A stretch of DNA of 64,000 nt from Candidatus Eiseniibacteriota bacterium (GCA_031370645.1 JANMQV010000006.1:6473-70472); one strand, 5' to 3'. Positions 9,707 to 41,800 are shown, counted from the first letter of the stretch. Notes: generated from the letters alone by a model not told the origin. Made by a program: numbers and translations.

Positions 9707-9795
9707 GGGGTTCCTCCCGGGTCGGTTTGGTCGCACGGCGGGGGCGCGGTTCGGGCCGCGATCGCCATTCAAGACAGAGAATTAGAGCATTGAGT

Positions 9796-18048: not shown

Positions 18049-22724
<4,676 letters not shown>

Positions 22725-22725
<1 letters not shown>

Positions 22726-25700: not shown

Positions 25701-26003
25701 CGTACCGGCGAAGGCGTCGCGCCGCAGCAGTGTCGCCGCGCCCTCCGCAGGAGCCGCGCCCCAGGCTTCGCGCGCCCCGGGTGGAAGTGACGCGGCGGCG
25801 GCAAGCGGCGCGCTCGCCCGGAGCAGGAGGAGGGAGGGCGAATTCCGCACCGGGAGGATGAGAACCGTCGAATCCGGTTCGGCGGGGGCATCACCGGCGG
25901 TGCGCGGCTCGGAGTCGTCCGAGGTGGGACGCGCGAACGCGCCACCCGGGACGAGAACGAGCCACAGGGCCAGAAGCGCGCCGGTCTTCGCGCGGGCGCT
26001 CAT
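22725..26003 (-). CDS. Large (~1090 aa) putative outer-membrane beta-barrel protein of unknown function
   Basis: Signal peptide MSARAKTGALLALWLVLVPGGAFA. Very Gly/Asp/Arg-rich. C-terminal ...YTARLELRSSF (beta-signal with terminal Phe). 1-nt stop/start overlap with the downstream Omp85 gene. Confidence 0.5.
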
Positions 26004-27031
26004 GGCGCGGCGCCCCGATCGATGGTGAAGATCCAAATCTCACCGCGCGTCTCATCGGCGACGGCGATTCGATCGTCCGGGCTCCAGGCGATCGCCCCGG
26101 GCCTCCACGCGTGCCGCTCCCCGCCGAGCCACCGGGTATGAAGTCGCGCGCCGTCCGACCCGAACACGAGAAGGCGCGCCCCCGCCGCATCGGCCACGTA
26201 GAGGGCGCCCGAGTCGTCGGCGGCCAGATCGATCGGCTCGGCGGCGAGGGAATCTCCCGCCGGGATACCCGGCCCCACGCGCCCCGTCGCGTCGAACCGG
26301 CGGAGCGTTCCCGCTTCGCGATCGGCGATCCACCCTCCTCCTTCGGGGAGAAAGACGGCGGCCGACGGCGAGCCGACCGACTCCTCGGGCGTGAGGAAGC
26401 GACCGGCGCGCCGGCGAAGAAGGCGCGAGTCGAGCGGGATCAAGTCGCGCGCGCGCGGCGCGAGGAGCCAGAGGTCGCCGTACGGATCGCGCAGGAGGCG
26501 TGCCTCGGGCGCGCGCGCCTCGTCGGCCAATTGAAGGTCGATGTCGCGCGTTCCGAGGTAGGCGGTGCGGCGGTCGTAGGCCAAGAGCGACGCGTGCGAG
26601 CGATCGAGCACGAGGAGCGATCCCCGCGCGTCGACGACGAGGTCGTGGGGTAGCGCCGAAGCCGGAGCGTCGTCGCCGAAAATGGTACCGAGGCCCGCCT
26701 CCGCCGCCGGCACGGTGGCCGCCCCGCGCGAGGGATCGCCGGCGCGAGGAGGGAGCGAAAGCCGTACGACGCGCCTCGCGCGCGCGTCGAGCACGTAGAG
26801 CGCGCCCTCTCCGTCGAACGCGAGCCGCGACGGGCGTTCGATGCCGGCCGCGCGGAGGCGATCGTGGTCGAGAAGGAGTTCCGCCCGCAGCGATCGCGGC
26901 GGCGCATCGGTGCGCCCGCGCCGTTCGATGTCGGGGGTCGGGAGCGCATGAGCGGGGCGCGGGACGGCCGGAGCGGCGAGGAGGCAGGCGAAGCAGACGG
27001 CCGCGAGGGCCAACCCCGTAGTTCGGCTCAC
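26000..27031 (-). CDS. Secreted NHL-repeat / six-bladed beta-propeller protein
   Basis: 343 aa. Signal peptide LALAAVCFACLLAAPAV. Repeated YVxDxxxxRxxxF-type NHL blades (GALYVLDARARRVV; GSLLVLDRSHASLLAYD; GALYVADAAGARLLVF; RIAVADETRGEIWIF). Confidence 0.6.
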   Translation of the reverse strand: MSRTTGLALAAVCFACLLAAPAVPRPAHALPTPDIERRGRTDAPPRSLRAELLLDHDRLRAAGIERPSRLAFDGEGALYVLDARARRVVRLSLPPRAGDPSRGAATVPAAEAGLGTIFGDDAPASALPHDLVVDARGSLLVLDRSHASLLAYDRRTAYLGTRDIDLQLADEARAPEARLLRDPYGDLWLLAPRARDLIPLDSRLLRRRAGRFLTPEESVGSPSAAVFLPEGGGWIADREAGTLRRFDATGRVGPGIPAGDSLAAEPIDLAADDSGALYVADAAGARLLVFGSDGARLHTRWLGGERHAWRPGAIAWSPDDRIAVADETRGEIWIFTIDRGAAP

Positions 27032-27104
27032 GATGTCGGGACCCTCCGGATGTCTCCAGGGCCCGGCGGCGGATTCGCCGTTCGCCGGGGTGAGGGCCGG
27101 GGCG

Positions 27105-27998
27105 CTAAAAGCGGCGGAGGAGGATGACGCGCGCGCCGCCGTCCGGCGTGGCGTCGGCCAGGAGGCGCGTTCCCTCGTCGAGCCGCGCCTGCCCGTCCTT
27201 CATGAGGCGACGATGCAGGACCTGCGTGTCGATCGCGCTCACGAGACGATTGAGGATCGCCGCGGCGAACGAGTACTTCGCGCGGTCGTAGGCTCGATTG
27301 GACGAAGCGCGCGTGGTCCGATACGACTTCTGAAGTTCCGCGCTGCTCCAGTTCCAGGCGCGGTCGCCCGACGGCAGATTCTTCGCCACGTAGTCGTCCT
27401 GCGCCGCGGGGTCGTCGGGAAATTGGTCGCGCGCATCGCGGCGCACGGTCTCTTCGTAGCTTCCCGGGCCGGAGCCGCTCGAGCGCTCGTACTGTCCCAC
27501 CAACTTCCAGTAGCTATCGCTCTCGCTGCCGGTCCCCACGCCCGCGTTCAATTGAGCCTGTTCGATGTAATCGTCGCGGCGAAGTCTCCCCGCCACTTCG
27601 AACCAGACGTAGTGCGTCCAGATGAGCCCTTCCGCGGCGAAGAATCCGGCAGCGCGTCCGCGCGCGCCGAGCGAGAGTTCGCCGGCGCCGGGAAGGAGAA
27701 GCGAATAGAGCAGAGCCTTCCGCTTCCCGGGACGCTTGGCCGGCGCCGAATCCGTCGTCGGAGCCGGCGGAGCATCCTGTCGCGTGAACGACGCCTCAGC
27801 CATCGCCGACGCCGAACGGTCGGCACCGGCGTCGCGCGCGGCGAGTTCGAGCGGTGTGGAGACGGGCAGGTGGAGCGAAGACGACGTGGCGGCAGGCTCG
27901 GCGAGCGCACGCGCGGCCGCCGGCAAGGCGACCAGGAGTGAGAACGCCGCGGCGAGCGCGCTAGTAAAGGCGGCGCGTGACCGTGATCTTGAGCGCAT
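27105..27998 (-). CDS. Secreted hypothetical protein, paralog B of a tandem pair (DUF5683-like LPGAG motif)
   Basis: 297 aa. Signal peptide. Motifs KALLYSLLLPGAGELSLG, EGLIWTHYVWF, C-terminal YSFAAAILNRLVSAIDTQVL. About 25-30% identity to the neighbouring gene, judged by eye. Confidence 0.55.
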   Translation of the reverse strand: MRSRSRSRAAFTSALAAAFSLLVALPAAARALAEPAATSSSLHLPVSTPLELAARDAGADRSASAMAEASFTRQDAPPAPTTDSAPAKRPGKRKALLYSLLLPGAGELSLGARGRAAGFFAAEGLIWTHYVWFEVAGRLRRDDYIEQAQLNAGVGTGSESDSYWKLVGQYERSSGSGPGSYEETVRRDARDQFPDDPAAQDDYVAKNLPSGDRAWNWSSAELQKSYRTTRASSNRAYDRAKYSFAAAILNRLVSAIDTQVLHRRLMKDGQARLDEGTRLLADATPDGGARVILLRRF

Positions 27999-28827
27999 TT
28001 TCGTTGGAGAACGGCCTCGTGCGCATGTTGAACTTGATCTGCGTGCTGTTTCCGAGGTTGGCGCGGCCGCGGTTTTTGAGAAGGCGGAGCACGTCGACCG
28101 CGCTCACGATACGGTTCACGAACCCGCCCACGATCGCGTAGCGGGCGTTCTTCAGGAAATTATTGCTGTCGTTTCGAATCCCATAATAGAAGCGCCGCGT
28201 CGGCGCGTCGGCCGGAGGAACGGCGTACCCCTCCCACCCGGTCCAGTAGATCGGGAGCTTGCCGATGTCCTCGTAGTACTGCTGCTTGTTGGTCTGCAGG
28301 AAGTTCTTGATGAGGTTGTCGGCATCGGAGCCTGGATTCGCAGGGTCGTACGCGATCCACCGCGCGTAGTCCCACTTGTCGTCGGCGTACGCCTCGTATT
28401 GATTTTCCTTCGTCTTGCCGCGGTCGTGATAGTAGAGATACGTGACCCACGTCGCGCCTTCGAGCCCGAGGTGGATCCAGCCTCGCTTGTTCCCCGCGTA
28501 GAGATGCCCCGCGCCCGGCACGATCATGTTGAGGAGGAACGCGCGCCCCGGCGACTTCGCGACAGGAACGAGGTCTTCATCGTGAGCGGGTGTCGAGGCG
28601 ACGGAACCCGGAGGCGCCACCGGTGGCGGGGAAACCGAGTCGGCGATGGCTCGCTGCGCGAGCAAAATCTCCCCGACGGAATTGATGCGGTAGTCGATGT
28701 CGGATGCGTGGGAAACTCCGGTGGCGATGACTACCGAAAAGAGGCCCGCGAGGACCGCGATATAAACCTGGCGCAGGGTCAGAATCTGGTTTCCTAAAAC
28801 CGGCCGGATGTGGGTTTCACCAAACAA
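27961..28827 (-). CDS. Secreted hypothetical protein, paralog A of the tandem pair (DUF5683-like); lower-GC gene
   Basis: 288 aa. Probable TTG start. Signal peptide IAVLAGLFSVVIATGVSHA. Motifs RAFLLNMIVPGAGHLYAG, EGATWVTYLYY, YAIVGGFVNRIVSAVDVL. The protein is K/N/Y/I-rich and the DNA is markedly less GC-rich than its flanks. Confidence 0.55.
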   Translation of the reverse strand: MFGETHIRPVLGNQILTLRQVYIAVLAGLFSVVIATGVSHASDIDYRINSVGEILLAQRAIADSVSPPPVAPPGSVASTPAHDEDLVPVAKSPGRAFLLNMIVPGAGHLYAGNKRGWIHLGLEGATWVTYLYYHDRGKTKENQYEAYADDKWDYARWIAYDPANPGSDADNLIKNFLQTNKQQYYEDIGKLPIYWTGWEGYAVPPADAPTRRFYYGIRNDSNNFLKNARYAIVGGFVNRIVSAVDVLRLLKNRGRANLGNSTQIKFNMRTRPFSNENALKITVTRRLY

Positions 28828-28850
28828 GTTAATGATACCTCGGCAAGAGC

Positions 28851-31800
28851 CTATCTAACAACGGCGAACTTCTGGAACGAGACCTCGCTGGCGCTACCGC
28901 GGCGGGCTTCGATCCTAACCAGATATACCCCGCTCGAGAGGTTTTGTAGCGGCAATTTCGTCACATTTTGCGCGGGCGCGGTCTCGCCCTGCATGGTTCG
29001 CACCACCTCCCCGGTCGGATCCAGGACGCGAATCTCGACCGAAGAGACTCCCGAATCGAGCGTGTAGGCGATCCCGATCTCATTGCCCCGAGACGGGTTG
29101 GGGAAGCAGTAGAAGGAACCCTTCGCGACGAGAGCCCCCCGCGCGGCGGGTGCCGCCAGCTGGAACTCGTCGAGAACGGCGCTCCGCCGGCGGTCGCCAT
29201 GGAGTCCGATCCAGGGAGTGCGAGCGCTCGTCCCGTCGGTGCTGAAGAGCGCGCTATCGGCCCGGACATCCGTCTGGTGGACGTCCCACTGGCCGAAATC
29301 CCCCACCGCCACCACGTGGAGCCACGCCGGCCCCGCCGGGTCGATCGGGACATCGGGTCCGTTGAGCGAGACCAACAGGGGCGTCGATTGGGTCGAGCGC
29401 TCCATTCCGAGGGGCCACCCGCTGACCGTCCGGCCCGTGGCGTCGAGCGCCACGAGAAGACCGTTGGTCAGTGCCACGAGCACATCCTGCGTTCCATTTC
29501 CGTCGAGATCCCCCACCACCGGCGAGCCCGAACCTCCACCGGCTCCGGCCCCGTAGCGAGACGCCAGTCGAACGGGCCAGCCGAGTGCTTCCACGCCGTT
29601 CCGGTTCCAGCGGTGAACCGAGCCCTGATCGTCCACCGCCATGATCTCGGGGAAGCCGTCGCCGTCGAGATCTCCCGCGGCCGCGGCGCCGAGCGTCCCC
29701 GCCACGGTGACGGGCCAGCCGCGCAGTTCCGCGCCGCTCAGGTCGAAGGCGTGAACGGTCCCCCGTGGAGAATCGACCACGATCACTTCAAGTTCACGAT
29801 TCGGGTCGCGGTCGAGATCAACGCCGAGGAGTGTTGGATTGAAATCGTTGACCCCGGTGATCGCGCGCCAGACGACATCGATGGCGCCGCCTCCCTTCCC
29901 GGGCTGATCGACGACGCGGAGGTAACCGTCCCGCGTGGCGTAGGCCATGGAGTACCCGCCAACGCCGTGGAAGCGCCCCACGGCGAGATTCCCCGACACC
30001 TCCGTCGTGACGGGCGTCGTGCCGTCGAGAAGCGTGTCGCACGCCGCGGATACGAGAGGAGCGATGGAAACACTGTCGGAAGGAGTCACGACGAAGACGC
30101 GACCGTCGCTCGTGCCGACGAGGATATTTCCGTCGGGCGAGAGGACCGGCCCCGTCGTGGCGTTGATGGAAGGATCACCGAGCGTCGGAGGCCAGCCGAA
30201 GAGTGAAATCGCCTGCCCCGCCGATTGGGAGTCGGGGCGGACGGCGTAGAGACGGCCGTCGTCGCAGGCAGCCACGATCCCCGCGCCGTGTCGTGCCGCC
30301 GGATTCCGCCGGAAGAGCGAGTCGACGAAGAGAACCGGCCCGCGAATCTTCGCGGGGAGCGGCATGAATTCACCGCTCTCGCGCCCGTTCACGTAGGGAC
30401 GCCCGTCCCCCATCCAGGCGAGAATCAGGCTATCCGCCGCGGTGACGAGCGATCGTCGTCCGTCGTGAAGGAGGCTCCCGAACGTCGGCGCGCCGAGTCC
30501 TCGACCCACCGCGCTCAAAAGCGGCCAGCCCGGAAGTCGAATGGTCGACTCGACCGACACGATCATATCGACGGCGGGAGCAGAGAGGACGCGGAGCGTG
30601 ACGTGGCTGAGGGCGCCGTCGTTCGTGGTCGTGCTCGGATTCGTATTCGGACCGAGGACGGTGTGGTTGCCGACGAAGTAGGGATCGAAGGGGCTCCCGT
30701 AGAAGTAGTACGACGCGGGATCCCCGAGGTCCTTGATCCCGTCCGCTTCCATGAGGCCGACGCCGAGCCGCTCGGGATTCGAATTGATGCCGAAGTCGGG
30801 ATTCGCATTCGGCCCGCAGACGAAGCCCGCCCCCGTGCCCGACACCTCGCCGGTGACGGTGCAGAAGACGGAGGGATCGATGTGCCAGACGAGAATGCCC
30901 TGCCCCGGGAGGAGGAAGTCGTACTCCTTGTCGCCGGTCGTATCGAGCGGGTCGGCGCTCGAGAGTCCCGGCCCGAGAATGACGTTGGTCGTGGAATCGC
31001 GATCGAGATAGAGCGATTGATCGCCGTTCAAGTCGGTCTGACGATTCTCCACGAGGAGGTATTCGTCCCCGTCGAGCGGGATGTAGAGCAATCGAGGGTC
31101 GAGTTGCGTCGACTTCAAGGGAGTCGTGACTTGCCGCTCGGGATCGGTGAACTCGAGCCCCGCAGGCCAGAGGAGCGACTTGCACCAGGGGTCGAGGCTC
31201 GTCGGCATGATGCCGCTGGCGACGACGATGGCGCCCGTCTTCGAGTCCTGGAGCGCCGTGCCGAGGAGATACCCCGAGTCCATGTTGCTCCAGATGCCGA
31301 CCGCCGGGAAGAACGTGTTGATGTCGTAGAGATCGGGAAGCCCCTGCGTGTGTCCGAACTCATGCGCGAGCGTGCCGTTGATGGCCCCGAAGTAGCCGTC
31401 CTGATTCTCCGTCTCCGGCATGACGAGTCCGCCGAAGATGCCGCGCGCGCCCCCGTTTACCGCGGCCGATTCCTCGAGAGAGATTTGGAAGGTCGGAAGG
31501 TCGCGCTGCGAGTCGCCGAGGATGTCCGACTGGTAGTCGGCGCCGGCGTGGAAGATCGAGACGACGTCGAAGTCGCCGAAGGGAATCGAATCGGTGGCGT
31601 CGGCCGCCAGGACCGCGTCGCGGAAGAAGCGCTGCGCTTCGGCGAACGACTGACTCCCGAGCGTCCAGGGGCCGTAACGACCCGTGTCGCCGAGGCGGTA
31701 CGCGCTGTTCTCCGCCTTCGGATAGACGTCGTACTCGACGACGAGCTGTCCGTACGACTGCTGCTTGAAATAGCGCGAGAGCGCTTCCAGGTGCGAGAGG

Positions 31801-32303
31801 AAGAAGCTTCGGTTGTGCGGCGGTGGATCGATGACGATGCCGAGCGCCGATCCATCGCGGAGATCGAACTTGCCGTCGGAGGTGCTGGTGGCGCTCCCGA
31901 GACTGTCGGTGTCGAACTCGACGCGAAGGGCGAGCACTCGCACGGTGTCGGCCACGCCCGTGGTGGAGAGCGCGCGCTCGAGCCGACCGGCGCCGTTCGG
32001 CGCGAGGAGCGGAGGTTTCCGGCCGCTGATCCAGGGAGATCGGCGTCCCCCGCCGAGATGCTCGGGGAAGGCGCGCCTTAGCGCGAGCCGGCGATCGGTG
32101 AGCATCTTCACCGCCTGGCGATCGGCGGCCGAAAGCGCTTCGGGCCGCGCCTTCGCCACGCGCCACGGCTCTCCCCGGCGGACGGGTGCGGTGGGGACCG
32201 GTGCCCCGGCAGCCTCCGCGCGGGAAACAAAAGGAGCCAGGCTTCCGAACGAAGCCTGGCTCCCGAGGAGTAGCGTGACGATCCAGCGCTTCAGGCGCCC
32301 CAC
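28851..32303 (-). CDS. Secreted M6 (immune-inhibitor-A-like) zinc metalloprotease with FG-GAP repeats and a T9SS C-terminal sorting domain
   Basis: 1150 aa. Signal peptide. Zinc motif HEFGHTQGLPDLYD (M6 HExxHxxGxxD). FG-GAP-like repeats GDLDGDGFPEIMAV and GDLDGNGTQDVLVAL. The C-terminal ~90 aa read FYCFPNPSRGNEIGIAYTL...VEIRVLDPTGEVVRTM...SGVYLVRIEA..., the T9SS CTD pattern. Confidence 0.8.
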   Translation of the reverse strand: MGRLKRWIVTLLLGSQASFGSLAPFVSRAEAAGAPVPTAPVRRGEPWRVAKARPEALSAADRQAVKMLTDRRLALRRAFPEHLGGGRRSPWISGRKPPLLAPNGAGRLERALSTTGVADTVRVLALRVEFDTDSLGSATSTSDGKFDLRDGSALGIVIDPPPHNRSFFLSHLEALSRYFKQQSYGQLVVEYDVYPKAENSAYRLGDTGRYGPWTLGSQSFAEAQRFFRDAVLAADATDSIPFGDFDVVSIFHAGADYQSDILGDSQRDLPTFQISLEESAAVNGGARGIFGGLVMPETENQDGYFGAINGTLAHEFGHTQGLPDLYDINTFFPAVGIWSNMDSGYLLGTALQDSKTGAIVVASGIMPTSLDPWCKSLLWPAGLEFTDPERQVTTPLKSTQLDPRLLYIPLDGDEYLLVENRQTDLNGDQSLYLDRDSTTNVILGPGLSSADPLDTTGDKEYDFLLPGQGILVWHIDPSVFCTVTGEVSGTGAGFVCGPNANPDFGINSNPERLGVGLMEADGIKDLGDPASYYFYGSPFDPYFVGNHTVLGPNTNPSTTTNDGALSHVTLRVLSAPAVDMIVSVESTIRLPGWPLLSAVGRGLGAPTFGSLLHDGRRSLVTAADSLILAWMGDGRPYVNGRESGEFMPLPAKIRGPVLFVDSLFRRNPAARHGAGIVAACDDGRLYAVRPDSQSAGQAISLFGWPPTLGDPSINATTGPVLSPDGNILVGTSDGRVFVVTPSDSVSIAPLVSAACDTLLDGTTPVTTEVSGNLAVGRFHGVGGYSMAYATRDGYLRVVDQPGKGGGAIDVVWRAITGVNDFNPTLLGVDLDRDPNRELEVIVVDSPRGTVHAFDLSGAELRGWPVTVAGTLGAAAAGDLDGDGFPEIMAVDDQGSVHRWNRNGVEALGWPVRLASRYGAGAGGGSGSPVVGDLDGNGTQDVLVALTNGLLVALDATGRTVSGWPLGMERSTQSTPLLVSLNGPDVPIDPAGPAWLHVVAVGDFGQWDVHQTDVRADSALFSTDGTSARTPWIGLHGDRRRSAVLDEFQLAAPAARGALVAKGSFYCFPNPSRGNEIGIAYTLDSGVSSVEIRVLDPTGEVVRTMQGETAPAQNVTKLPLQNLSSGVYLVRIEARRGSASEVSFQKFAVVR

Positions 32304-32316
32304 GTCGATGGCGATC

Positions 32317-33288
32317 TTAGAAGTGGTAGCTGGCCGAGAAGCGGCTTGTACGATTCAGGAACTCCGACTGCGGGAACGACGCGTAGTCGAAGCGGAACCC
32401 CTTGTACGTCAGGCCGAGCCCGTAGGTCGCGTCCGTAATCGTGCCGATCGGGTCGCTGATGTAGCCAACCCGAAGCGCGATGAGCCGGTTGAACTCGTAT
32501 TCGATGCCGGCATTCCAGACGCTCACGCCGAGTACCTCGTCCGGAAGGAGGAAGCGATTCGCGTCGGCGGCGATCAGGACCCGGTGAACCTCGTTTTCAA
32601 ACGGGGTATAGGCGAACCCGATCTTCAGATTGCGACCGAGCGGATCGGACTGATCCTCATCGATGTACGCGATGCTCGGGCCGAGGTTTTGGATTACCGC
32701 CGCGAAGGACGCCTTCCATTTCGGCACTTTGTAGAGGGTCCCGATGTCGGCGGCGAACGACGTGCCCCGTCCGGCGCGGCCGTCGAGGGTCACCGTGGCC
32801 GGCGCGAGATCGACCCGCAGCAGCTTCAGCGCCACGCCGAATCCGAGGTTGTCGCCGATTTCGGTTCCGTAGGCGATCGTCGGGGCGATTTCATAGGAAC
32901 TGAATTCGCCGGTCACATTGCCGTCCGGATCGGTTCCCTCGGTCTTGCCGTAGGAGAGATAACCGATCGCAGCACCGAGACCGCCCCATCCCTCAACATG
33001 CTGCACATACGCGAGGTAGGAGAAGTTGACGTCGTCGGCCAGATCCGGCACGAGCTGCGTGTACATGAACGACGCGTCGTGGCCGCGGGCGAAGGCCATG
33101 GCGCCCGGATTCCACCAAATCATGTTGGCGTCGTCCGCCACGGCGACGAAGGCGCGCCCCATGCCGTCCGAGCGAGCCCCGGGGGCAATGAGGGAAGACG
33201 CCGCGCCGGCTTGCGACTGCGCGTGGGCTGTTCCGACCGTGCCCACCAATAGCAGGGCCGCCAGGCAGAGCGTGGTGAAACGAATCAT
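32317..33288 (-). CDS. porV: PorV/LptO-like FadL-type outer-membrane beta-barrel (T9SS cargo shuttle)
   Basis: 323 aa. Signal peptide ending AHAQS. N-terminal SDGMGRAFVAVADDANMIWWNPGAMAF motif. C-terminus ...FSASYHF. Lies between porU and a CTD cargo gene. Confidence 0.6.
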   Translation of the reverse strand: MIRFTTLCLAALLLVGTVGTAHAQSQAGAASSLIAPGARSDGMGRAFVAVADDANMIWWNPGAMAFARGHDASFMYTQLVPDLADDVNFSYLAYVQHVEGWGGLGAAIGYLSYGKTEGTDPDGNVTGEFSSYEIAPTIAYGTEIGDNLGFGVALKLLRVDLAPATVTLDGRAGRGTSFAADIGTLYKVPKWKASFAAVIQNLGPSIAYIDEDQSDPLGRNLKIGFAYTPFENEVHRVLIAADANRFLLPDEVLGVSVWNAGIEYEFNRLIALRVGYISDPIGTITDATYGLGLTYKGFRFDYASFPQSEFLNRTSRFSASYHF

Positions 33289-33393
33289 TTCGTAACCTCC
33301 TTCGAGACACTACAGAGGGATGCCGAAGCACCCCGCAGCCGAGACCTCTCAATGGTACCGGAAATTGGGGCCACCTTCAAGCGCGACACCCGG

Positions 33394-36300
33394 TTATCGA
33401 GTCCGAAGCGCGCGCCCGACCGCGTCCACCCTGCCTGATCCCGCCGCTTCCGCCGTAACGTGAATGAGGTACACGCCGATGGCCACATTTTCTCCCCCTG
33501 AATCGCGCCCGTCCCACGGAAGGTAATTCTCCCCCGCCTTCCCGTCCGCCGACCACTCGCGCACCCTCCGACCCGCCACGGTAAGGATCTGCACCTTCAA
33601 CCGGGCCGGCTGACTCAGGCGAACGTGGACGTAGGTCTCCTTTTCGAACGGGTTGGGGTAGTTGAAGACCTGGCTCAACTGAAGCGGCCCGCCACCGCCG
33701 GCCGAGGCCGCCACCTCGATCACGAACGAGGCGACGCCGATATTCCGGTAGGTATCGGAAGCGTGCACTTCCATCCGGTGGGGGCCGGTCGCGAGGGGGG
33801 GCAGGGTGAGGATCACGCTCCCTCGCGTGCCGCTCCCGACCTGGTAGACGAACGCGGAGGTGAGGTTGATCGGGGTTCCCGCATCGTCGAAGAGGACGAA
33901 GACGGCGTGGGCGTTGTCGAAGCCGGTCAGATCGATGCCGCTCGAGTCCTCGATCGCGATCGTCACCTGGTCGCCCGGGGAATAGGTCGTGTCGGGGGGT
34001 GCGACGAGGGTGATGGTGGGAGGCGTGACGTCGATGCGCGGGGAGAGCCCCTGTCCGATCCGAAGCGAATCGACCGCGAGCCCCACGCCCTCTCCGCCTG
34101 CCTGTTCGAGGAGCGCCTCGAGCCGCGCGCCGGGGCCGCTCACGCGCGCGTCGACCGGCACTGTGAACTGAATCGCGAAGGTGCCTGCCGCGAGCGAAAC
34201 CTCGCCCTGGTAAAGCAACGGGCCGGGGAGATCGTACGGAGCGATTCCCGGATTCCCGCCGTTCGACCCCGTTTGAATTCGCCTCGACGGGGGCCCGAGA
34301 ATCCGAAGACGGGCGCGACCCGCGGCGAGTGTGTCGGCGGAACCGTCCTCGTTGATGGCATGGCCGCGAAGGGTGACCTGCTCTCCGCGAAGGACCGAAT
34401 CGAGCGCGCCCTTTTCCCACACCCCCCTACCACGCGGGAGCGGCGGGAGAGTCCCGGGCTCGCCCAAGAGGGCGTACTTCCGGGCGCTGATATTGACGCT
34501 CTGATTCTTGGCGCGCGCCCACGCGAGGCCGACGGTGGTCAGACTGTCGACGCGGGGAGCGAGGGGAAAGAGCTGGTCGACGAAGCGGTCGTTCAACTCG
34601 CTGCTTTCGGTGCCGAAGACTTCCCCGGTCGCGGCGACGGCCGCCACGGCGCCGACGGTCGGTGCACGCACGAGGATCTCCGCCAGCCCGTCCGCCCCGC
34701 TCCGGTATTCGTCGAAACGTCCCACCGTGCAGCTCATGAAGCACCAGATCGCGGGAAAGGAAGTGTTCGTCAGCCGGGTGGCATCGGTCGAGCGGAAGAC
34801 CTGCTCGTCGGCAAGGAAATTGTCGGTGCCATGCCCGATATAGTCGACGAGCCAGTTCTGGCGGTTCACCGCGGCGATGAATGCTTCCCGCGCCCCCGGC
34901 TTCGACGTCTTGAACGAGTCGGAGAATGCGTAGTCGTTCAGATAGACCTTTTCACGTGTGATCGGGAACGGGAGGTGGAATCGATCCTTCCGCTCCATTT
35001 GTCGCACGTGGTCCAGGCCGACTGGATCGAGTTGCTGCGGTTTCGACCACTTCCAGGCATCGTCGGCGCAGAGCAACGCGCGATTCCTCGCAAGATCGAA
35101 GGAAGTGTTCGATTCATAGATCCTTCGCTTGCCGCGAACCATCTCGAGCGCTTCCTCCGGCGTTCGCGCCGGAAGGCGGCCGATCGCGAGGTCGAGGAGC
35201 TGGTCGCCCGGTCCGTCGAGCCGGACGATCCAGTCCTCGATCGAGTACTGCTCCTGGAGCTCGGTGTGGTGCCCCCGACTGTAGGTCGGTACCTGATCGA
35301 TGACGCGAAGACCCGAGTAGTTGAGCGGATCGAGCGATGCGTCGCCGAGGAGGCAGACATAGAGCGGAGGGCGCGCCCAGTGCCGCGTCGCATACGCGAG
35401 GAAATTTCGAAGCGCCGCGACGTCGGGAGTGCCGCCGGCGAATTGGCTGAAAATCCGATCCGTCGTCGCGACCCGCGCGATGGGGTTCGCCTCCCCGCTC
35501 AGGAAGCGGGACCGATCGGTGGCCAGCGATTCCGCGGCGGCGAGGAAAGCCGGGGGCGCGACGACGATGTAGTCCGCCTGGTTCGCCGTATCGAGCAGGT
35601 CGCTGACGGTTCGCGCTCCCATCGGAGGCGCGTAGAGAGCGATGGCGGAGGGACGTAGCGCTCGCGTCGTGGAGAGGAGCGCATAGCGGGGACGATATCC
35701 GGGCCCCGCGCTGTCTTCGAGCGTGAGCGTGAAGGCGCCCGGCGCCCCACTCCAGGCGCCGCCGAACAATCGGACCGGACGGTCGGGGTCGGTGCGGTCG
35801 TAGCAGCGGACGGCGGCGCTGTCCGACACGGCGCTGACCGCGTAGCGGAATCGGCCCGCGGCCACCGAGTCGGGCGCGGCGAAGAAAAGCGTGTCGGCCG
35901 TCGCCTGGAGCCGCCGTGAATAATCGACGTCGAACCAGGCGATGTACTGCGCGTCGCTCCGATTTGGATCGCTCGGATCGTTGATGAGCGGTACGCCGAC
36001 TTCGAGCGTATCGCGGATCGACTGCCCTACCGCGAATCCTCCACCCGTCAGATCTTGCGGAAGCGAGAAATTCCAGCCCGCGCTATCAACAAGGGCGCGA
36101 TTCCACGTAACGCGGGCGATGTGGTCCGGGATCGACGTCCCAATCGAGCTGTTGAATCCCCAGAGCCGAAGGCGGAGCGACGCGGCGCTTCCCGGAACGG
36201 CGCCCGGGAGCGAGAGCGGGTAGGCAATGCGATTTCCTTCGACGATGATTCGATCGAACCATCGCTCCCAGGTGTAACCCGGCAGGAAGAGATTGATCTG

Positions 36301-37548
36301 GTAGAGCCGATTCGCCCCAATGTGAAGCCGGTGCACGTCCGTGGTCAAGAGCGGGGCGCTGCCGGACACCAACGCGGCGTCTCGCCCCGGGACGCGAAGG
36401 GGTGCCGTGACCGGCGGTCCTGATCCCCACGTGAGCCAGTAGGGCGCTTCGAACGTACGGAGCGCCTCTTTAAATTCCTCGCCGCCACCGCGCTTCAGGT
36501 CGAATCCGAAACCGAACGCGCCGGTGCCGTAGAAATAGAGGGTATCGGCGGGGTCGAACGAGCCGTCACCCTCCCCTTTCACCTCGATCGCGCACTCGCG
36601 AAGCGAATCGGGGACGAGATCGACGTCGACGCTCTCCGGAAGGTCTCCGGGAGAGGCGCGGAAGATTCGGAGCGTCGCGGGATCGATCGAACCGACCGCC
36701 ACGCCCGCGGTGGCGAGGTCGGCGGCCGTCACGCGATAGAGCCCGGTGCGCGTCGTTGCGAGGCGAACCCAAGGACGCGACGGATCGACGCGAAGCGGCC
36801 CGCCCGCGGCGGTGGCGCGAGGGGCGGGGGAACTCGAACGCATGGCGTAGCGCGGTCCCGCGGCGGCGTCCGGCTCGAGCGCCACGGCCCGAGCGCTCGC
36901 CCGCGGTGTGCTCCCCGCTCCCGGCGCCAGCGCCTCGACAGGACGCTCCCACGAGACGTCAAGCACCACGTCTTCGAACTGCCACGCGCTTCCGGTCGCC
37001 GGCTCCCACTGCACGGGCGCGAGTTCCACGGCGAGGATTCGCGTCCCTCCCACCGCCATCGGCGTGACCCGCCGAATCAGGTCGGCCGGCGGAGCCGCGG
37101 CATAGGCCGGCGAGGCGAGTGCCTCCCGCCAATCGCGAGTCCGCTGTCCTGCCCGCTCGCTCGGTTCCGTGACGAGCTTCGGTACCGGCGTCGGCCGGAT
37201 CGCGCCAAGAGGGCGCGTCGTACCGGGCGTCGCGCGGACGTGCGGTTCCACACCCCATGGCACGCGGAGCCATACCGTGCGCGTCGGAATCTGCGGCGCT
37301 CCGTCGGGCGCGGTGTCGGCCCCGCCGGGAAGGAGCACCTCATCGAGGGGGACTCCCTCGACGTCGCCGTGCACCACGACGGCTTCCCCGATCGGAACAC
37401 GGACGCGGTAGCCGAACGGGGTGGCGGCGGAGGTAACGAGCGCGGGAGGAAGCGACGCGGCGGCCGACGCGGAGGCCGCGGCTCCGCCGAGAATCGGGGC
37501 GGCGGCAATCGCGACCCATGCGAGGACGCCGGAGAAAAAGCGGCGCAT
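33394..37548 (-). CDS. porU: PorU-like T9SS C-terminal signal peptidase/sortase (peptidase C25, gingipain family) with its own T9SS CTD
   Basis: Real start at the internal MRRFFSGVLAWVAIAAAPILGGAAASASA (ATG at 37546-37548). About 1384 aa. C25-type segments ADYIVVAPPAF and WLVDYIGHGTDNFLADE...AIWCFMSCTVGRFD (catalytic His/Cys). C-terminal CTD LSQVFNYPNPFEKETYVHVRL...VQILTVAGRRV...GVYLIHVTAEA. Confidence 0.8.
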   Translation of the reverse strand: MRRFFSGVLAWVAIAAAPILGGAAASASAAASLPPALVTSAATPFGYRVRVPIGEAVVVHGDVEGVPLDEVLLPGGADTAPDGAPQIPTRTVWLRVPWGVEPHVRATPGTTRPLGAIRPTPVPKLVTEPSERAGQRTRDWREALASPAYAAAPPADLIRRVTPMAVGGTRILAVELAPVQWEPATGSAWQFEDVVLDVSWERPVEALAPGAGSTPRASARAVALEPDAAAGPRYAMRSSSPAPRATAAGGPLRVDPSRPWVRLATTRTGLYRVTAADLATAGVAVGSIDPATLRIFRASPGDLPESVDVDLVPDSLRECAIEVKGEGDGSFDPADTLYFYGTGAFGFGFDLKRGGGEEFKEALRTFEAPYWLTWGSGPPVTAPLRVPGRDAALVSGSAPLLTTDVHRLHIGANRLYQINLFLPGYTWERWFDRIIVEGNRIAYPLSLPGAVPGSAASLRLRLWGFNSSIGTSIPDHIARVTWNRALVDSAGWNFSLPQDLTGGGFAVGQSIRDTLEVGVPLINDPSDPNRSDAQYIAWFDVDYSRRLQATADTLFFAAPDSVAAGRFRYAVSAVSDSAAVRCYDRTDPDRPVRLFGGAWSGAPGAFTLTLEDSAGPGYRPRYALLSTTRALRPSAIALYAPPMGARTVSDLLDTANQADYIVVAPPAFLAAAESLATDRSRFLSGEANPIARVATTDRIFSQFAGGTPDVAALRNFLAYATRHWARPPLYVCLLGDASLDPLNYSGLRVIDQVPTYSRGHHTELQEQYSIEDWIVRLDGPGDQLLDLAIGRLPARTPEEALEMVRGKRRIYESNTSFDLARNRALLCADDAWKWSKPQQLDPVGLDHVRQMERKDRFHLPFPITREKVYLNDYAFSDSFKTSKPGAREAFIAAVNRQNWLVDYIGHGTDNFLADEQVFRSTDATRLTNTSFPAIWCFMSCTVGRFDEYRSGADGLAEILVRAPTVGAVAAVAATGEVFGTESSELNDRFVDQLFPLAPRVDSLTTVGLAWARAKNQSVNISARKYALLGEPGTLPPLPRGRGVWEKGALDSVLRGEQVTLRGHAINEDGSADTLAAGRARLRILGPPSRRIQTGSNGGNPGIAPYDLPGPLLYQGEVSLAAGTFAIQFTVPVDARVSGPGARLEALLEQAGGEGVGLAVDSLRIGQGLSPRIDVTPPTITLVAPPDTTYSPGDQVTIAIEDSSGIDLTGFDNAHAVFVLFDDAGTPINLTSAFVYQVGSGTRGSVILTLPPLATGPHRMEVHASDTYRNIGVASFVIEVAASAGGGGPLQLSQVFNYPNPFEKETYVHVRLSQPARLKVQILTVAGRRVREWSADGKAGENYLPWDGRDSGGENVAIGVYLIHVTAEAAGSGRVDAVGRALRTR

Positions 37549-37724
37549 CAGGTCCGTTCGATCTTCTCCGCTTCCTCGGGAAGCATGACGGGAACGCCGT
37601 CCACGACCGGATAGCGGAGTGCGCACGCTTCGCAGATCAGCTTGTCGGCCTCGCGATCGTACCGGAGATCGCCCCGGCAATTCGGGCAGACCAAAAGGGC
37701 GAGGAGCTCGTCGCTCAGCGGCAT
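37548..37724 (-). CDS. Trm112/YcaR (UPF0434) family small zinc-ribbon protein; absent from the supplied ORF track (58 aa)
   Basis: Reverse complement of 37548..37724 translates as MPLSDELLALLVCPNCRGDLRYDREADKLICEACALRYPVVDGVPVMLPEEAEKIERT. This is the Trm112p-like CPxC...CxxC...YPVxDGIPVML signature. GAAGGA sits 9 nt upstream of the ATG. The TGA stop overlaps the porU ATG by 1 nt. Confidence 0.7.
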   Translation of the reverse strand: MPLSDELLALLVCPNCRGDLRYDREADKLICEACALRYPVVDGVPVMLPEEAEKIERT

Positions 37725-37749: not shown

Positions 37750-38790
37750 TCAGAGCGCGGGCGGCATCGCGGCGCCGGCCGCCGGGGCGGAATCGAGAGA
37801 GGTGCCCTCCGGAGGGCTCGCCACGGCGACCGCCTCCTCGAGATACACCCCCATCTTCAAGTATTTCTCCAGCCGCCGGTCGAGAAGTTCCTGCTTCGGC
37901 AGCCCGAGGAGGGAACGGATGTGGCGGAGAACCGCGTCCTTGAGTCGAATCGCCGTCTCGTCGGGATCGCGGTGTGCGCCTCCCAGCGGTTCCGGGATGA
38001 TCTCGTCGATCACGTGCAGTTCGAGGAGATCCTTCGCCGTCAACTTCAGGGCCTCGGCCGCCTGTTCCGCCTTCGAGGCGTCCTTCCAGAGGATCGCGGC
38101 ACACCCCTCCGGCGTGATGACCGAGTAGATCGAATTCTCCATCATCATGACGACGTCGCCGACGGCGAGGGCCAACGCACCGCCGGAGCCGCCCTCGCCG
38201 ATTACCACCGTGACGATCGGCACGGGGAGATGCGCCATCTCGAGAATGTTTCGCGCCAGGGCCTCCGACTGGCCGCGCTCTTCCGCGCCGAGCCCGGGGT
38301 ACGCCCCCGGCGTATCGACCAGTGTCACGATCGGAAGGCCGAAGGAGGCGGCCGTCTTCATGATGCGAAGCGCCTTCCGGTACCCCTCCGGGTGCGCCAT
38401 GCCGAAATTCCGGTAGATGTTCTCCTTCGTGTCGCGCCCCTTCTGGTGCCCCATGAGCACGAGCGGGAGATCGTCCACAACGGCGAAACCCGCGACGATG
38501 GCGGGATCCTCCCCGAAGCGCCTGTCTCCATGGAGCTCCATGAATCCGGGCGCGATCTGTTTGATGTAGTCGAGGGTGTAGGGGCGGCGCGGATGGCGCG
38601 CCAGTTTCACGCGCTGCCAGCGCGTCAGTTTCGCGTAGATGTCGTGGCGAAGCCGATCGGCCTGGCGTTCGAGCTTTTGCAGCTCGTCCATGGCCTTCGG
38701 ATTTTCGGGCGTGGCGAGCCCGCGGAGGTCTTCGATCTTTCGCTCGATCTCGACGATCGGCTTTTCGAAATCGAGCCACGTCCCGTTCAT
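37750..38790 (-). CDS. accA: Acetyl-CoA carboxylase carboxyltransferase alpha subunit
   Basis: 346 aa. MNGTWLDFEKPIVEIERKIEDL N-terminus. TPGAYPGLGAEERGQSEA and IGEGGSGGALA motifs. Confidence 0.9.
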   Translation of the reverse strand: MNGTWLDFEKPIVEIERKIEDLRGLATPENPKAMDELQKLERQADRLRHDIYAKLTRWQRVKLARHPRRPYTLDYIKQIAPGFMELHGDRRFGEDPAIVAGFAVVDDLPLVLMGHQKGRDTKENIYRNFGMAHPEGYRKALRIMKTAASFGLPIVTLVDTPGAYPGLGAEERGQSEALARNILEMAHLPVPIVTVVIGEGGSGGALALAVGDVVMMMENSIYSVITPEGCAAILWKDASKAEQAAEALKLTAKDLLELHVIDEIIPEPLGGAHRDPDETAIRLKDAVLRHIRSLLGLPKQELLDRRLEKYLKMGVYLEEAVAVASPPEGTSLDSAPAAGAAMPPAL

Positions 38791-38809: not shown

Positions 38810-41800
38810 CTAGACCGCGACTGCTTCCGCTTCGGGATCGGGATCCGCGAGGCGGACCGCGTCGGCGCCGAGCCTTGCCCGAAGCGCCTGGATCAGCTCC
38901 TCGCACGGATTCGCGAGCAGCGTCTTCGCGCGGATCACCGCCCGCGACCCGTCCGCGCCCCGCACCGTGAAGTATACCGGGCTCTCGCCGGGATGGCGCA
39001 GCAGGAGTGCGCGCACCGCGTCGAGCGGCTGTCCCGAACTCGACTCGTCGATCTCGAGATAGAGCGCACGCGCCTTCGCGGGATCGGGAACCGCCACGAC
39101 CCGAGCCGCAAGAAGCACCATCTTCGGATCGGCCTCGTCGCGGAGATTGACGCGTCCCTTCACTTCCAGCACCGCACCCGGCACGATGACCGAGCGCGAC
39201 TTCTCCCAGAGGTCGTTGAAGCAGGTCGCTTCCACCGTACCTTCTAGATCTTCGATCGTGATGAATGCCATGGCCCGCTTGTTCCGGTCCATGTGCGTCT
39301 TCACTGAGGCGACGATTCCGAGGAGCGGCACCTCGTCGCCCTCCTTCCGTTCGCGAAGGCCGAGCGTCGTCGAGCCGCCGCGAGCCTCGAGCATGGCGAG
39401 AAGCGGGCGATAGGCGGCGAGCGGGTGATCGGAGAAATAGAAGCCGAGCACTTCTTTCTCCCGGCGAAGCCGCTCCTCGAGCCCCCAGGGCGCCGTGTTC
39501 GGGAGGGGCGGGTCCTGCATGACCGCCACTTCGCCCGCGCCGAAGAGACTCTCCTGGGCCAGGTCGACGCCGCGCGCCTGCCCCTGCGCGCGCGAGAGGA
39601 GTTCCCCCACCGCTTCCAGAAGCTGCGACCGGTCGCCACCGAGGCGGTCGGACGCCCCCGCCTGTATGAGCGATTCGAGAACGCGGCGATTGATGGCGCT
39701 CAGGTCGACGCGCCGGATGAGGTCGCCGAGCGACTGGAAGGGGCCGCCCTCCTCTCGGGCCCGGACGATCGCTTCGACCGATCCCTGCCCCACGTTCTTC
39801 ACGGCCGCGAGGCCGAAACGGATGCCGTCCCCTTCGAGCGCGAACTCCGTGCGGCTCGCGTTCACATCGGGCGGATGAACCGTGATGCCGAGGCGCCTCG
39901 CTTCGTCCACGAGCGTCACGATCCGGTCGGTGTTCCCGATTTCGCTCGTGAGCGACGCGGCCAGGTAGGCGGCCGGATGGTGCGTCTTCAGCCACGCCGC
40001 CTGATACGAGAGCGCGGCGTACGCGGTCGAGTGCGCCCGCACGAAGCCGTAGCCGGCGAACTTCTCCATGAGGTCGAAAATCTCGCCCGCCTTCTTCGCC
40101 GGACAGTTGTTCTTCTCCGCGCCCTCGACGAAGGACGACTTCATGCGGGTCATCTCCTCCGGCATCTTCTTTCCCATGGCCCGCCGAAGGAGATCTGCTT
40201 GCGCGAGGGAGAAGCCGGCGAGCCGGTTGGCCACCTGCATGACCTGGTCCTGGTAGACGATGACGCCGTACGTCGGCTTGAGGATCGCCTCGAGCGTCGG
40301 ATGGGGATAGACGACCTTCGCCCGTCCGTGCTTCCGCTTCACGAAGTCGTCGATCATTCCCGACTGGATCGGCCCCGGGCGGAAGAGCGCGTTGATGGCG
40401 ATGATGTCTTCGAACGTGTCGGGGGCGACCTTCCGGAGCAGATCCCGCATGCCGGACGATTCCAATTGGAAGATGCCGATCGTCTGCGCGCTCTGGAAGA
40501 GTTTGTAGGTCGGTTCGTCGTCGAGCGGCAAGGCGGCCAGCTCGACTCGCGTTCCGGTCGACTCCTCGACCATGCGCGTGGCGTCCTCGAGCACCGTCAG
40601 CGTGCGAAGCCCGAGGAAGTCCATCTTGAGGAGCCCCACCTTCTCCACCGATTTCATGTCGAACTGGGTCGTCACATCCCCCTTCGACGATTTGAAGATC
40701 GGGACGAAATCGGAGAGAGCCCCCGGCGCGATGACGACCCCCGCCGCGTGCGTGGAAGCGTGCCGCGCCAAGCCTTCGAGCGCGAGCGACGCACGGATCA
40801 ACTTGGCGTAGCGCTCATCCTGCTTCTGGAGCGCCTTCAGCTCGGGAACGATCTCGAGCGCCTTCGGGAGCGTCATCCCCAGATCGCCCGGGACCATCTT
40901 CGCCACCTTGTCGACCTCGGCGTAGGAGAGCCCGATGGCGCGACCGACGTCTCGGACCACGGCGCGCGCGGCCATCGTTCCGAACGTGATGATCTGGCTC
41001 ACCGAATCGCGGCCGTACCGCTGGATGACGTAGTTGATCACCTTCTCGCGATGTTCGTACGCGAAGTCGATATCGATATCGGGCATCGTCACGCGCTCGG
41101 GATTCAAGAAGCGCTCGAAGAGGAGGTTGAAGCGGAGCGGATCGACGTCGGTGATTCCGAGCGAGTAGGAGACGAGGCTTCCGGCGGCCGAACCGCGGCC
41201 GGGCCCGACGCCGATGCCGTTTCGCCGCGCGTAGTCCGTGAAATCGCGGACGATGAGGAAGTAGCGCGCGTAGCCGACCTGGCAGATCGTCTTCAGTTCG
41301 TATTCGAGCCGCTCCTCGATCTCGGGCGTGACGGCGGGGAAGCGCCGCTTCACGCCCTCCCACGCGAGGTGGCGGAGGTAGAGGTCCTCGTGCTCGAACT
41401 CGGGCGGAAGCGGGAACGCCGGCAGATCGACGCGCTCGCCCTCCAGCTTGAAGTCGCAGCGCTCGGCGGCGACGACGGTGTTCCTCAGGACGTCGGGGAC
41501 ACCATCGAAGAGCGCCGCCATCTCCTCTGGCGATTTCACGTAGACCTGGTCGGTCGCGAATTTGAACCGGTCGGCGTCGAGGAGTGTTTTCCCGGTCTGG
41601 ATGCAGAGAAGGATCTCGTGCGCCTCGGAGTCCTCGCGCGCCAGGTAGTGGCAGTCGTTCGTCGCGAGGACCGGAATGCCCATTTCGCGGCCGAGCTCCA
41701 AGAGCCCCTTCGCCACGACCTGTTCCTCGGGAATCCCGTGGTCCTGCACTTCCAGGAAGTAGTTCTCCGCGCCGTAGAGGTCGCGGTACCAGGCGGCCGA

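Follow-up and report, generated by a model that had tools for sequence, protein, structure and literature searches.

Does the porU-porV pair in this genome, together with the M6 metalloprotease gene beside it, form a self-contained type IX secretion system (T9SS) module, or does it belong to a larger unit? We examined this question in a 64-kb window, by which we mean the whole stretch of DNA that was analyzed. The first-pass annotation had described Trm112-like, porU, porV and M6 open reading frames (ORFs), all on the minus strand, with accA and dnaE upstream of trm112 on the same strand, and these genes stand where it had placed them. All seven of the gene calls that were compared (trm112, porU, porV, M6, NHL, Big, and Omp85-like) exactly match proteins called on a 75,313-bp NCBI contig. 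The genome lies outside the Bacteroidota, as had been supposed; the names of the database records assign it to Candidatus Eisenbacteria/Eiseniibacteriota rather than to the Gemmatimonadota-like lineage first suggested. The GC content, put at ~70%, is about 0.67 when the whole window is counted and varies between 0.645 and 0.69 along the region.

We conclude that porU and porV probably form one end of an outer-membrane secretion/attachment cluster of eight genes that is conserved phylum-wide in Candidatus Eisenbacteria. The cluster is one tightly packed same-strand chain between dnaE-accA-trm112 and ligA (Table 1). The three-gene extent originally proposed for the module was too short: five more genes belong to the conserved unit, the last of them Omp85-like, in the order porU-porV-M6-X1-X2-NHL-Big-Omp85 (window positions 20878–37548). 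Some 50 Eisenbacteria genomes and one genome of TA06 share this order, at identities that fall as low as about 30%. For example, it is complete at loci L001 and L002 (the latter a complete 2.69-Mb Eiseniibacteriota genome), where the M6 proteins are 59% and 34% identical, respectively. Among 51 loci with porV, an X gene, and Big (one of them from TA06), M6 is present in 48 and porU was detected upstream in 44; in one clade porU is not adjacent to porV. Profile searches of the 64-kb window found no porK/L/M/N, sprE, porT, porQ, porZ, or full-length sprA.

Table 1. Features of the cluster and its flanks, in window coordinates; profile scores are given against the model cutoff.
Feature	Coordinates	Strand	Evidence
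dnaE (DNA polymerase III alpha), housekeeping gene on the upstream side of the chain	38810..42280	-	NCBIfam PRK06826, 1424.8 bits vs cutoff 1260
accA (acetyl-CoA carboxylase carboxyltransferase alpha)	37750..38790	-	TIGR00513, 470.7 bits vs 319
Trm112/YcaR-like zinc-ribbon ORF, 58 aa	37548..37724	-	PF03966, 50.9 bits vs 22, E 1.5e-13
porU, C25-family T9SS sortase, 1384 aa, signal peptide, about 250 aa extra at the N-terminus	33394..37548	-	NF033707, 445 bits vs 420
porV, FadL-like outer-membrane shuttle, PorV/PorQ family, 323 aa	32317..33288	-	PF19572, 74.1 vs 27; NF033709, 223.7 vs 90
Conserved RNA hairpin, 14-bp stem, 5-nt loop, then UUUGUUUCC; candidate attenuator/terminator	32232..32264	-	Terminator-like site
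M6 (InhA-like) zinc metalloprotease, 1150 aa	28851..32303	-	Peptidase_M6, FG-GAP_3 and Por_Secre_tail matches
X1, 288 aa, PGAGxLYxG motif, DUF5683-like	27961..28827	-	Position conserved in loci
X2, paralogue of X1	27105..27998	-	BLASTP X1 vs X2, E 2e-12
NHL-repeat beta-propeller protein, signal peptide	26000..27031	-	PF01436, E 6.9e-15
Big, 1092-aa outer-membrane protein, candidate compact translocon	22725..26003	-	Signal peptide, terminal Phe
Omp85-like protein (putative POTRA + barrel), 615 aa	20878..22725	-	PF01103, 23.5 bits (cutoff 24)
ligA (NAD-dependent DNA ligase), housekeeping gene that bounds the cluster downstream	18866..20881	-	PF01653, E 1.9e-88, and further domains

The sortase and the shuttle are identified by curated models. 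PorU, annotated from the start as a C25 sortase, passes the cutoffs of both NF033707 and Peptidase_C25 (PF01364, 214 bits against 23, E = 5e-63). It aligns with P. gingivalis PorU (PDB 6ZA2; E = 8.7e-34) over residues 656–1370, and the His and Cys segments proposed as catalytic pair within this alignment (‘YIGHGT’ with ‘YAGHGG’, and ‘FMSCTVG’ with ‘TATCDF’). The P. gingivalis PorU residues that we take to be catalytic, carried over through the 6ZA2 alignment, point to His906 and Cys940 as the equivalents here. The suggestion that PorU has a C-terminal sorting domain (CTD) of its own is plausible: its score on TIGR04183 falls short (22.1 against 23), but FlgD_ig reaches 34 against 27 and the 6ZA2 alignment extends through the CTD to residue 1370. 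PorV likewise passes its family cutoffs and ends, as had been noted, in HF (...SASYHF). On NF033710, the equivalog model that tells PorV apart from PorQ and further paralogues, it scores 146.8, below the cutoff of 250 and above its score on PorQ (92.3). Its best PDB match is the F. johnsoniae PorV (6h3i_F, E = 1.5e-19), and BamG is not among its PDB matches.

At the other end of the cluster, half of the X1/X2 family (22 of 44 members) matches DUF5683, with a best E of 1.1e-6; because the longest X2 ORF overlaps X1 by 38 nt, the X2 start codon is uncertain. The PDB matches of the NHL protein are NHL/Pizza propellers, and the T9SS Plug is not among them. From here on the genes overlap: the NHL stop with the Big start (ATGA), the Big stop with the Omp85-like ATG (by 1 nt), and the Omp85-like stop with the ligA start (GTGA). 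The Omp85-like protein also scores 19 against 21.3 on POTRA and 37 against 297 on BamA (TIGR03303, E = 1.2e-9), and its L002 orthologue gives faint POTRA, POTRA_2, and Omp85 matches. Its gene follows Big in 63 of the 64 loci that have enough room downstream of Big.

Big is a candidate compact translocon and may be a compact secretion pore. The AlphaFold model is a confident giant barrel of about 36–40 strands with two small inserted domains; SprA/Sov is a 36-strand barrel of about 2400 aa (PMC10994853). We found no Pfam family for Big, whose sole database similarity is a ~55-residue motif common with the T9SS translocon SprA/Sov. This motif occurs in 30 of 33 Big family members, and SprA is the top PDB match for the motif profile; in eight of the 33 the motif also matches phage tail-tube models. 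Big was rejected as a canonical SprA/Sov: it scores 21.3 bits against 200 on TIGR04189, over residues 253–316 only, and is 1092 aa long against about 2300–2500 aa. There is a substantial minority chance that Big and the Omp85-like protein are unrelated to type IX secretion, forming instead a giant porin, or an anchor for an S-layer, and its dedicated insertase, and sit beside porUV only as part of a frozen envelope/housekeeping block. A full-length Big profile found no match in the PDB, and fold searches of Big returned generic barrels only (TM-score ≤0.25). The Big family comprises more than 4600 unannotated clusters. Gene neighborhoods beyond the phylum do not link Big to PorU and PorV: no PorU, PorV, or Omp85 is encoded next to a Chloroherpetonaceae Big homologue, and neither porU nor porV was detected within 10 kb upstream of Big in a KSB1 genome.

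The M6 protein is, as first described, a CTD-bearing protease of 1150 aa with FG-GAP repeats, and its Peptidase_M6 and CTD matches pass HMM cutoffs. It consists of a signal peptide (the N-terminus, MGRLKRWIVTLLLG...AEA, resembles one), a predicted catalytic domain with an intact HEFGHTQGLPDLY, a beta-propeller (FG-GAP/PQQ-like; FG-GAP_3, E = 3.4e-10), and a type-A T9SS CTD at residues 1067–1138 (PF18962 Por_Secre_tail, 33.8 against 27; TIGR04183, 28.7 against 23), and it includes the segment AHEFGHTQGLPDLYD. In the catalytic domain, PF05547 scores 27.3 against 22 over 43 residues only, and TIGR03296 scores 61.6 against 110.8. The AF2 model (pLDDT 79.5) matches InhA2 in Foldseek (4yu6, E = 1e-9, 788 columns). 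The zinc motif HExxHxxGxxDxY is intact in 119 of 120 M6 homologues, and this conservation fits an active enzyme. The best NCBIfam match is NF052323, the T9SS-dependent M6-like inactivated metalloprotease (231 bits, E = 2e-68); we rejected membership in that family, as the score is far under the cutoff of 600 and the active-site motif is not degenerate. The description of M6 as a cargo is apt in that it bears a CTD, but this cargo is no arbitrary one: syntenic orthologues of it occur throughout the phylum.

This constancy raises the prospect that M6 has a fixed working role alongside PorU and PorV, as a PorZ-like subunit of the attachment complex or as a protease acting in maturation, parallel to an NCBIfam trio of PorU2, PorV2, and inactivated M6. 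We consider this unlikely. The accession NF052323 is consecutive with NF052324 (PorU2) and NF052325 (PorV2), models that the PorU and PorV of the window match weakly, but that the three describe one co-located system is read from names and numbering alone, and the low NF052323 score and the conserved zinc motif of an apparently active enzyme speak against the parallel. M6 is syntenic with porV down to about 30% identity; however, it is missing from L035, L073, and L075, where porU, porV, X, and Big are still there. The C-terminal propeller and CTD resemble PorZ in Foldseek (5m11, E = 5e-10, 940 aligned columns), and PorU and PorZ each carry a CTD of their own (PMC11285876), although the TM-score of 0.17 marks the PorZ resemblance as a generic propeller match.

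The start of the M6 gene also carries a conserved RNA hairpin. It begins 52 nt past the porV stop, spans codons ~14–24 of the M6 signal peptide, and has a minimum free energy of −32.6 kcal/mol (z −3.07). Among the 20 loci with a porV of ≥65% identity, 18 have a stem of 12–15 bp that lies ~52–64 nt past the porV stop. Compensatory changes occur at four of its thirteen pairs, with none broken in twelve. The covarying hairpin and its U-tract, placed in the first M6 codons, would probably set the ratio of porUV to downstream-gene transcripts.

At the porU end, the cluster adjoins housekeeping genes. The gaps on either side of accA are 19 nt (to dnaE) and 25 nt (to trm112), and cluster mates of the Trm112-like ORF are named ‘Trm112 family protein [Candidatus Eisenbacteria bacterium]’. 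Upstream of the cluster, dnaE is kept in L001 and L002, and trm112 lies immediately 5′ of porU in L001, L002, and L035; in most loci ligA follows the cluster. The reported 1-nt overlap between the trm112 stop and the porU start is real (‘acc TGATG cgc’, in which TGA and ATG share one base). The junction itself varies: the two genes overlap by 4 nt in L001 and stand 65 nt apart in L002, and L075 lacks trm112. Translational coupling, claimed for the whole module, is confined to trm112 and porU: porU and porV are separated by 105 nt, within which porV has its own GGAGG ribosome-binding site, and porV and M6 by 13 nt. That the three genes are a self-contained T9SS module with an ordinary M6 cargo, translationally coupled to housekeeping genes within one transcript, in a Gemmatimonadota-like genome with canonical SprA/PorKLMN elsewhere, is quite improbable. 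The PorU, PorV, and M6 identities and the 1-nt overlap are confirmed, and Big is linked to SprA only weakly, so a canonical machine may be encoded elsewhere. Against this reading, the lineage is Eisenbacteria, five further genes are equally syntenic, the 105-nt gap with its own ribosome-binding site and a terminator-like hairpin flank porV, and M6 keeps its position as a conserved orthologue, unlike a cargo that varies.

If porU and porV are part of the eight-gene secretion/attachment cluster, as we favor, the SprA/PorV mechanism (PMC10994853) offers a template for how its products could work. The M6 protease, which has a signal peptide, would cross the inner membrane via Sec. By analogy with the Bacteroidota T9SS, its CTD would be recognized at an outer-membrane translocon, with PorV as the shuttle. 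PorU, with an intact His906/Cys940 dyad, would then remove the CTD, and the M6 protease would be released or surface-anchored. The likeliest translocon would be the co-encoded Big, with the Omp85-like protein as its possible dedicated insertase. Taken further, Eisenbacteria and at least TA06 might encode a compact, co-localized outer-membrane half of a type IX-like system, in which a ~1100-aa Big replaces the ~2400-aa SprA/Sov and works with PorV and PorU, its own Omp85 paralogue inserts it, two DUF5683-like proteins and an NHL propeller accompany it, and the active M6 represents the ancestral state of the ‘inactivated M6-like’ partner beside PorU2/PorV2 in Bacteroidota. We advance this fuller picture tentatively, as a rather doubtful one.

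The closest known counterpart is the PorU-PorV pair of Bacteroidota. Both pairs combine a sortase of the C25 fold, in which the His and Cys segments align and a CTD is probably retained, with a PorV-family FadL-like barrel; in both, porU and porV are adjacent genes and there is type-A CTD cargo. In contrast, the PorU described here has an N-terminus longer by about 230 aa, its PorV falls below the equivalog cutoff, and the host is a member of Candidatus Eisenbacteria, whose PorU orthologues are named merely ‘C25 family cysteine peptidase’ in public records; the pair has no porZ or porQ nearby and is fused into the dnaE-accA-trm112 ... ligA chain. Like SprA/Sov (PDB 6H3I/6H3J), Big is predicted to be a single-chain giant barrel with a similar strand number, is encoded with PorV, and contains the motif GSxxVxxxGxxLxxGxDYxxDYxxG, which corresponds to SprA residues 696–746. 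Unlike SprA/Sov, Big is half the length, has no detectable similarity outside the motif, and is followed by an Omp85-like gene. The M6 protease and InhA (MEROPS M6; PDB 4YU5/4YU6) have in common the HEFGH..GLPDLY zinc motif and a Foldseek fold match, whereas their sequence similarity is marginal (E = 0.005) and the M6 protein adds a beta-propeller and a T9SS CTD. Finally, the NF052323, PorU2, and PorV2 families likewise bring PorU-like and PorV-like proteins together with a protein in which a large beta-rich region and a T9SS CTD come after an M6-like domain. Here, however, PorU, PorV, and M6 all score far below those cutoffs, PorU and PorV fit their primary models better, and the zinc site is intact and conserved, with the motif kept in 119 of 120 M6 homologues.

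The sortase, shuttle and protease genes form part of a longer conserved cluster, within a single tightly packed chain of minus-strand genes that runs from 42280 down to 18866. We inspected the surroundings of two M6 homologues, on a 2.1-Mb contig (59% identity) and in a complete 2.69-Mb genome (34%). Each has the order dnaE, accA, trm112, porU, porV and M6, followed by a pair of ~270-aa genes and then by genes for an NHL-repeat protein, a ~1100-aa protein and an Omp85/POTRA protein. The first-pass annotation had delimited a module of three genes; in relatives the same order reaches five genes further, to the Omp85-like gene. A synteny scan with one genome per species and the ~1100-aa protein (Big, a predicted giant outer-membrane barrel) as the query found 271 relatives, from which we kept 80 loci, whose cluster content was determined by tblastn with the window proteins. 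PorV, X1 or X2 (the paralogous pair after M6), and Big occur together in 51 loci, one of them from candidate division TA06. The M6 gene is flanked by porV and X1 in 48 of these 51 (it is missing from loci L035, L073 and L075), and porU was detected upstream in 44. An Omp85-like gene directly follows Big in 63 of the 64 loci with enough sequence. None of porK/L/M/N, sprE, porT, porQ or porZ was found within the 64-kb window.

Features of the cluster and of the surrounding window
Feature	Coordinates	Strand	Description	Junction with next gene
PilB/T2SSE-type ATPase	123-1895	-	MshEN domain	
ORF	2571-4946	-	791 aa, coding-like GC3	
TPR protein	6143-8137	-	664 aa; best NCBIfam match SgmX, type IV pilus formation (104 bits, below cutoff)	
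Histidine-utilisation block	8165-12812	-	urocanase, imidazolonepropionase-like amidohydrolase, formiminotransferase-cyclodeaminase	
ORF	12986-13993	+	335 aa, coding-like GC3	
Omp85-like gene				4-nt overlap with ligA
Big	22725-26003	-	1092 aa; signal peptide, terminal Phe, no Pfam domain	1-nt overlap with Omp85-like gene
NHL gene				4-nt overlap with Big
X2	27105-27998	-	~290 aa	
X1	27961-28827	-	~290 aa	
M6 protease	28851-32303	-	1150 aa, FG-GAP repeats, type-A Por_Secre_tail	23-nt gap to X1
Hairpin	32232-32264	-	14-bp stem, then UUUGUUUCC	
porV	32317-33288	-	323 aa, C-terminal end ...SASYHF	13-nt gap to M6
Stem in porU-porV spacer	33315-33340	-	short GC stem, UUCG tetraloop (GGGGUGC-UUCG-GCAUCCC), just 5' of the porV GGAGG RBS	
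porU	33394-37548	-	1384 aa, NCBIfam PorU sortase model and Peptidase_C25	105-nt gap to porV
Trm112-family zinc ribbon	37548-37724	-	58 aa, PF03966 E 1.5e-13	1-nt overlap with porU
ORF	57039-58241	+	400 aa, coding-like GC3	
Gre-domain ORF	59084-61798	+	904 aa; GreA/GreB N- and C-terminal domains confined to last ~160 residues	

All seven of the gene calls that we looked up are identical to proteins called on a 75-kb NCBI contig, which, together with the family and structure matches, confirms the earlier reading of these genes as encoding a Trm112-family protein, PorU, PorV and an M6 protease. With 445 bits, PorU clears the curated cutoff (420) of the NCBIfam PorU sortase model, and it contains a full Peptidase_C25 domain (E 5e-63). 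Its only match among solved structures is Porphyromonas gingivalis PorU (6ZA2, E 8.7e-34), in an alignment that extends through the C-terminal sorting domain (CTD). The catalytic segments proposed from sequence do align with those of 6ZA2 (‘YIGHGT’ opposite ‘YAGHGG’ and ‘FMSCTVG’ opposite ‘TATCDF’), which points to a putative His906/Cys940 dyad. PorV exceeds the Pfam PorV and NCBIfam PorV/PorQ cutoffs, scores too low for the stricter PorV equivalog model (146.8 vs a cutoff of 250), and has F. johnsoniae PorV as its best PDB match. We also considered BamG, from the Bacteroidota-type BAM complex (PMC12611786, PMC12578637), for this FadL-like protein and rejected it because the PDB search gives PorV, not BamG.

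The M6 protein, which carries the sequence feature AHEFGHTQGLPDLYD, was previously described as a cargo with FG-GAP repeats and a CTD, and this description holds: its type-A Por_Secre_tail scores above the Pfam and TIGRFAM cutoffs alike. Of 120 homologues, 119 keep the zinc motif HExxHxxGxxDxY intact, so we read the M6 protein as a probable working protease under selection. The closest NCBIfam model is nonetheless the ‘T9SS-dependent M6-like inactivated metalloprotease’ (231 bits vs a cutoff of 600). This model is numbered beside the ‘PorU2’ and ‘PorV2’ models, which suggests that PorU/PorV pairs are recurrently accompanied by an M6-like protein; to judge by their names, the three models would describe one system. 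The simplest reading is that the M6 protein is a dedicated, conserved cargo. A rival reading makes it a PorZ-like partner: in its AlphaFold model (pLDDT 79.5) the C-terminal part matches propeller proteins, PorZ among them, and the N-terminal part matches InhA2.

The paralogous proteins X1 and X2 (E 2e-12 against each other) carry PGAGxLYxG and NRxVSAxD motifs, and nearly every locus keeps them at the position after M6 and before the NHL gene. Weak matches to DUF5683, an uncharacterised family, come from half of their relatives, and an X1/X2 profile had no match in the PDB. Locus L035 encodes a third X copy where M6 would stand. The NHL protein was considered as the T9SS protein Plug and rejected, as the PDB search gave no match to Plug.

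Big is predicted with confidence by AlphaFold (pLDDT 80.8, pTM 0.73, with 49 homologues as input) as ∼40 long antiparallel strands with two small inserted domains. Its sole family signal is to the SprA/Sov translocon model TIGR04189 (21 bits, E 3e-5 for the window protein). Thirty of 33 Big relatives match this model individually (best E 1.5e-11), in every case through one and the same stretch of ∼55 residues and with scores well short of the cutoff of 200, so that Big falls outside SprA membership by that cutoff. The same segment also touches a phage tail-tube model in eight of the 33. A motif-only profile placed F. johnsoniae SprA (residues 696–746) at the top of 177,635 PDB sequences with a borderline E of 0.022; a full-length Big profile had no match among PDB sequences. 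In our reading, Big is a giant outer-membrane barrel with one small domain in common with SprA. Given its conserved position beside porU and porV, we consider it a candidate compact translocon and hypothesize an SprA-like function; that it replaces SprA outright seems to us possible but rather unlikely. Two other identities were rejected: LptD, since Big has no LptD family match, and a TamB/AsmA-like protein, given the cleavable signal peptide, terminal Phe and fold matches to closed outer-membrane barrels.

An exhaustive HMM search defines a Big family of 4641 clusters, and the best 150 of these are all 1050–1260 aa long, save a few shorter, probably truncated entries. Named members carry the label ‘hypothetical protein’. 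The family reaches beyond Eisenbacteria, with members in KSB1 and Chloroherpetonaceae. At the KSB1 locus (L072), the Omp85-like gene still follows Big, and no porU or porV was detected within the upstream 10 kb; the Chloroherpetonaceae Big (L083) stands alone among unrelated genes.

Translational coupling, as first proposed for the module, holds only in part. Overlaps exist in the chain, including one in which the porU ATG and the Trm112 stop codon share one base (‘acc TGATG cgc’), yet they are absent among porU, porV and M6, which are separated by gaps. PorV is preceded by its own GGAGG site, and the trm112–porU link varies among relatives. A sigma-70 promoter scan was uninformative (one site vs 1.2 expected).

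The porV–M6 junction contains a hairpin that begins 52 nt past the porV stop, within codons ∼14–24 of the M6 signal peptide (MFE −32.6 kcal/mol, z −3.07). A 12–15 bp stem lies ∼52–64 nt past the porV stop in 18 of 20 loci with porV at least 65% identical, and a hairpin with a U-rich tail occurs at equivalent sites in relatives (loci L001, L003, L004, L006, L008, L010, L011, L015, L019, L021, L023-L026 and L028-L030). From 18 sequences, RNAalifold derives 13 pairs, of which four show compensatory double changes and 12 are never broken. In one case, a synonymous Gly change is offset by a Pro-to-Phe change in the opposite arm. Three further loci (L037, L042 and L068) have a hairpin of unrelated sequence at the same place. 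An Rfam search of 20000–43000 found no family, the hairpin included. The hairpin resembles an intrinsic terminator or attenuator in a coding start, and may split porUV from downstream gene expression.

The suggested GC-rich, non-Bacteroidota origin stands, with GC measured at about 0.65–0.69 in this region rather than 70%. The more specific guess of Gemmatimonadota was rejected, as nearly every named relative, whether of M6, PorU, PorV, Trm112 or the products of the downstream genes, comes from a MAG labelled ‘Candidatus Eisenbacteria’ or ‘Eiseniibacteriota’. A few contigs with other labels, among them Acidobacteriota and Hyphomicrobiales, show 50–70% identity to the window and are probably binning errors. 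At 30–66% identity, an Eisenbacteria-type cluster occurs on contigs labelled Acidobacteriota, Limnocylindrales, Bacteroidota, Dormiibacterota, Binatia, Hyphomicrobiales, Latescibacterota, Omnitrophota and others (loci L006, L009, L013, L017, L018, L020, L022, L027, L048, L051 and L074); at such identity these are probably mis-binned MAG contigs.

Elsewhere in the window, the PilB/T2SSE-type ATPase and TPR genes may have roles in type IV pili or motility, and the histidine-utilisation block shares the strand of the cluster. For a Gre factor, the N-terminal extension of the Gre-domain ORF is unusually long, unless the start codon is over-called. The 791-, 335- and 400-aa ORFs had no Pfam or NCBIfam match.

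To our knowledge, work on type IX secretion has been almost confined to Bacteroidota. A literature search found no paper pairing Eisenbacteria with type IX secretion, and nothing relevant on PorU2/PorV2 or DUF5683. T9SS components have been suggested in other FCB phyla, where they are mentioned merely as possibilities (PMC11285876). Here, a sortase, a shuttle, a conserved and apparently active protease cargo and a candidate half-size translocon stand together in one syntenic block that is kept throughout a candidate phylum. This gene set lets one ask what the minimal outer-membrane part of the T9SS is, and how the enormous SprA barrel originated. Current annotation misses a large family of giant barrels without a Pfam domain, structured RNA in a coding start, and the PorU orthologues, which public records name solely ‘C25 family cysteine peptidase’. 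PorU/PorV adjacency and CTD-bearing cargo are standard features of the Bacteroidota T9SS, and the window cluster has both in common with it; new are the conserved eight-gene cluster, the unannotated giant-barrel family with its SprA-type motif and Omp85 partner, the apparently active M6 counterpart of the ‘inactivated’ family, and the covarying hairpin.
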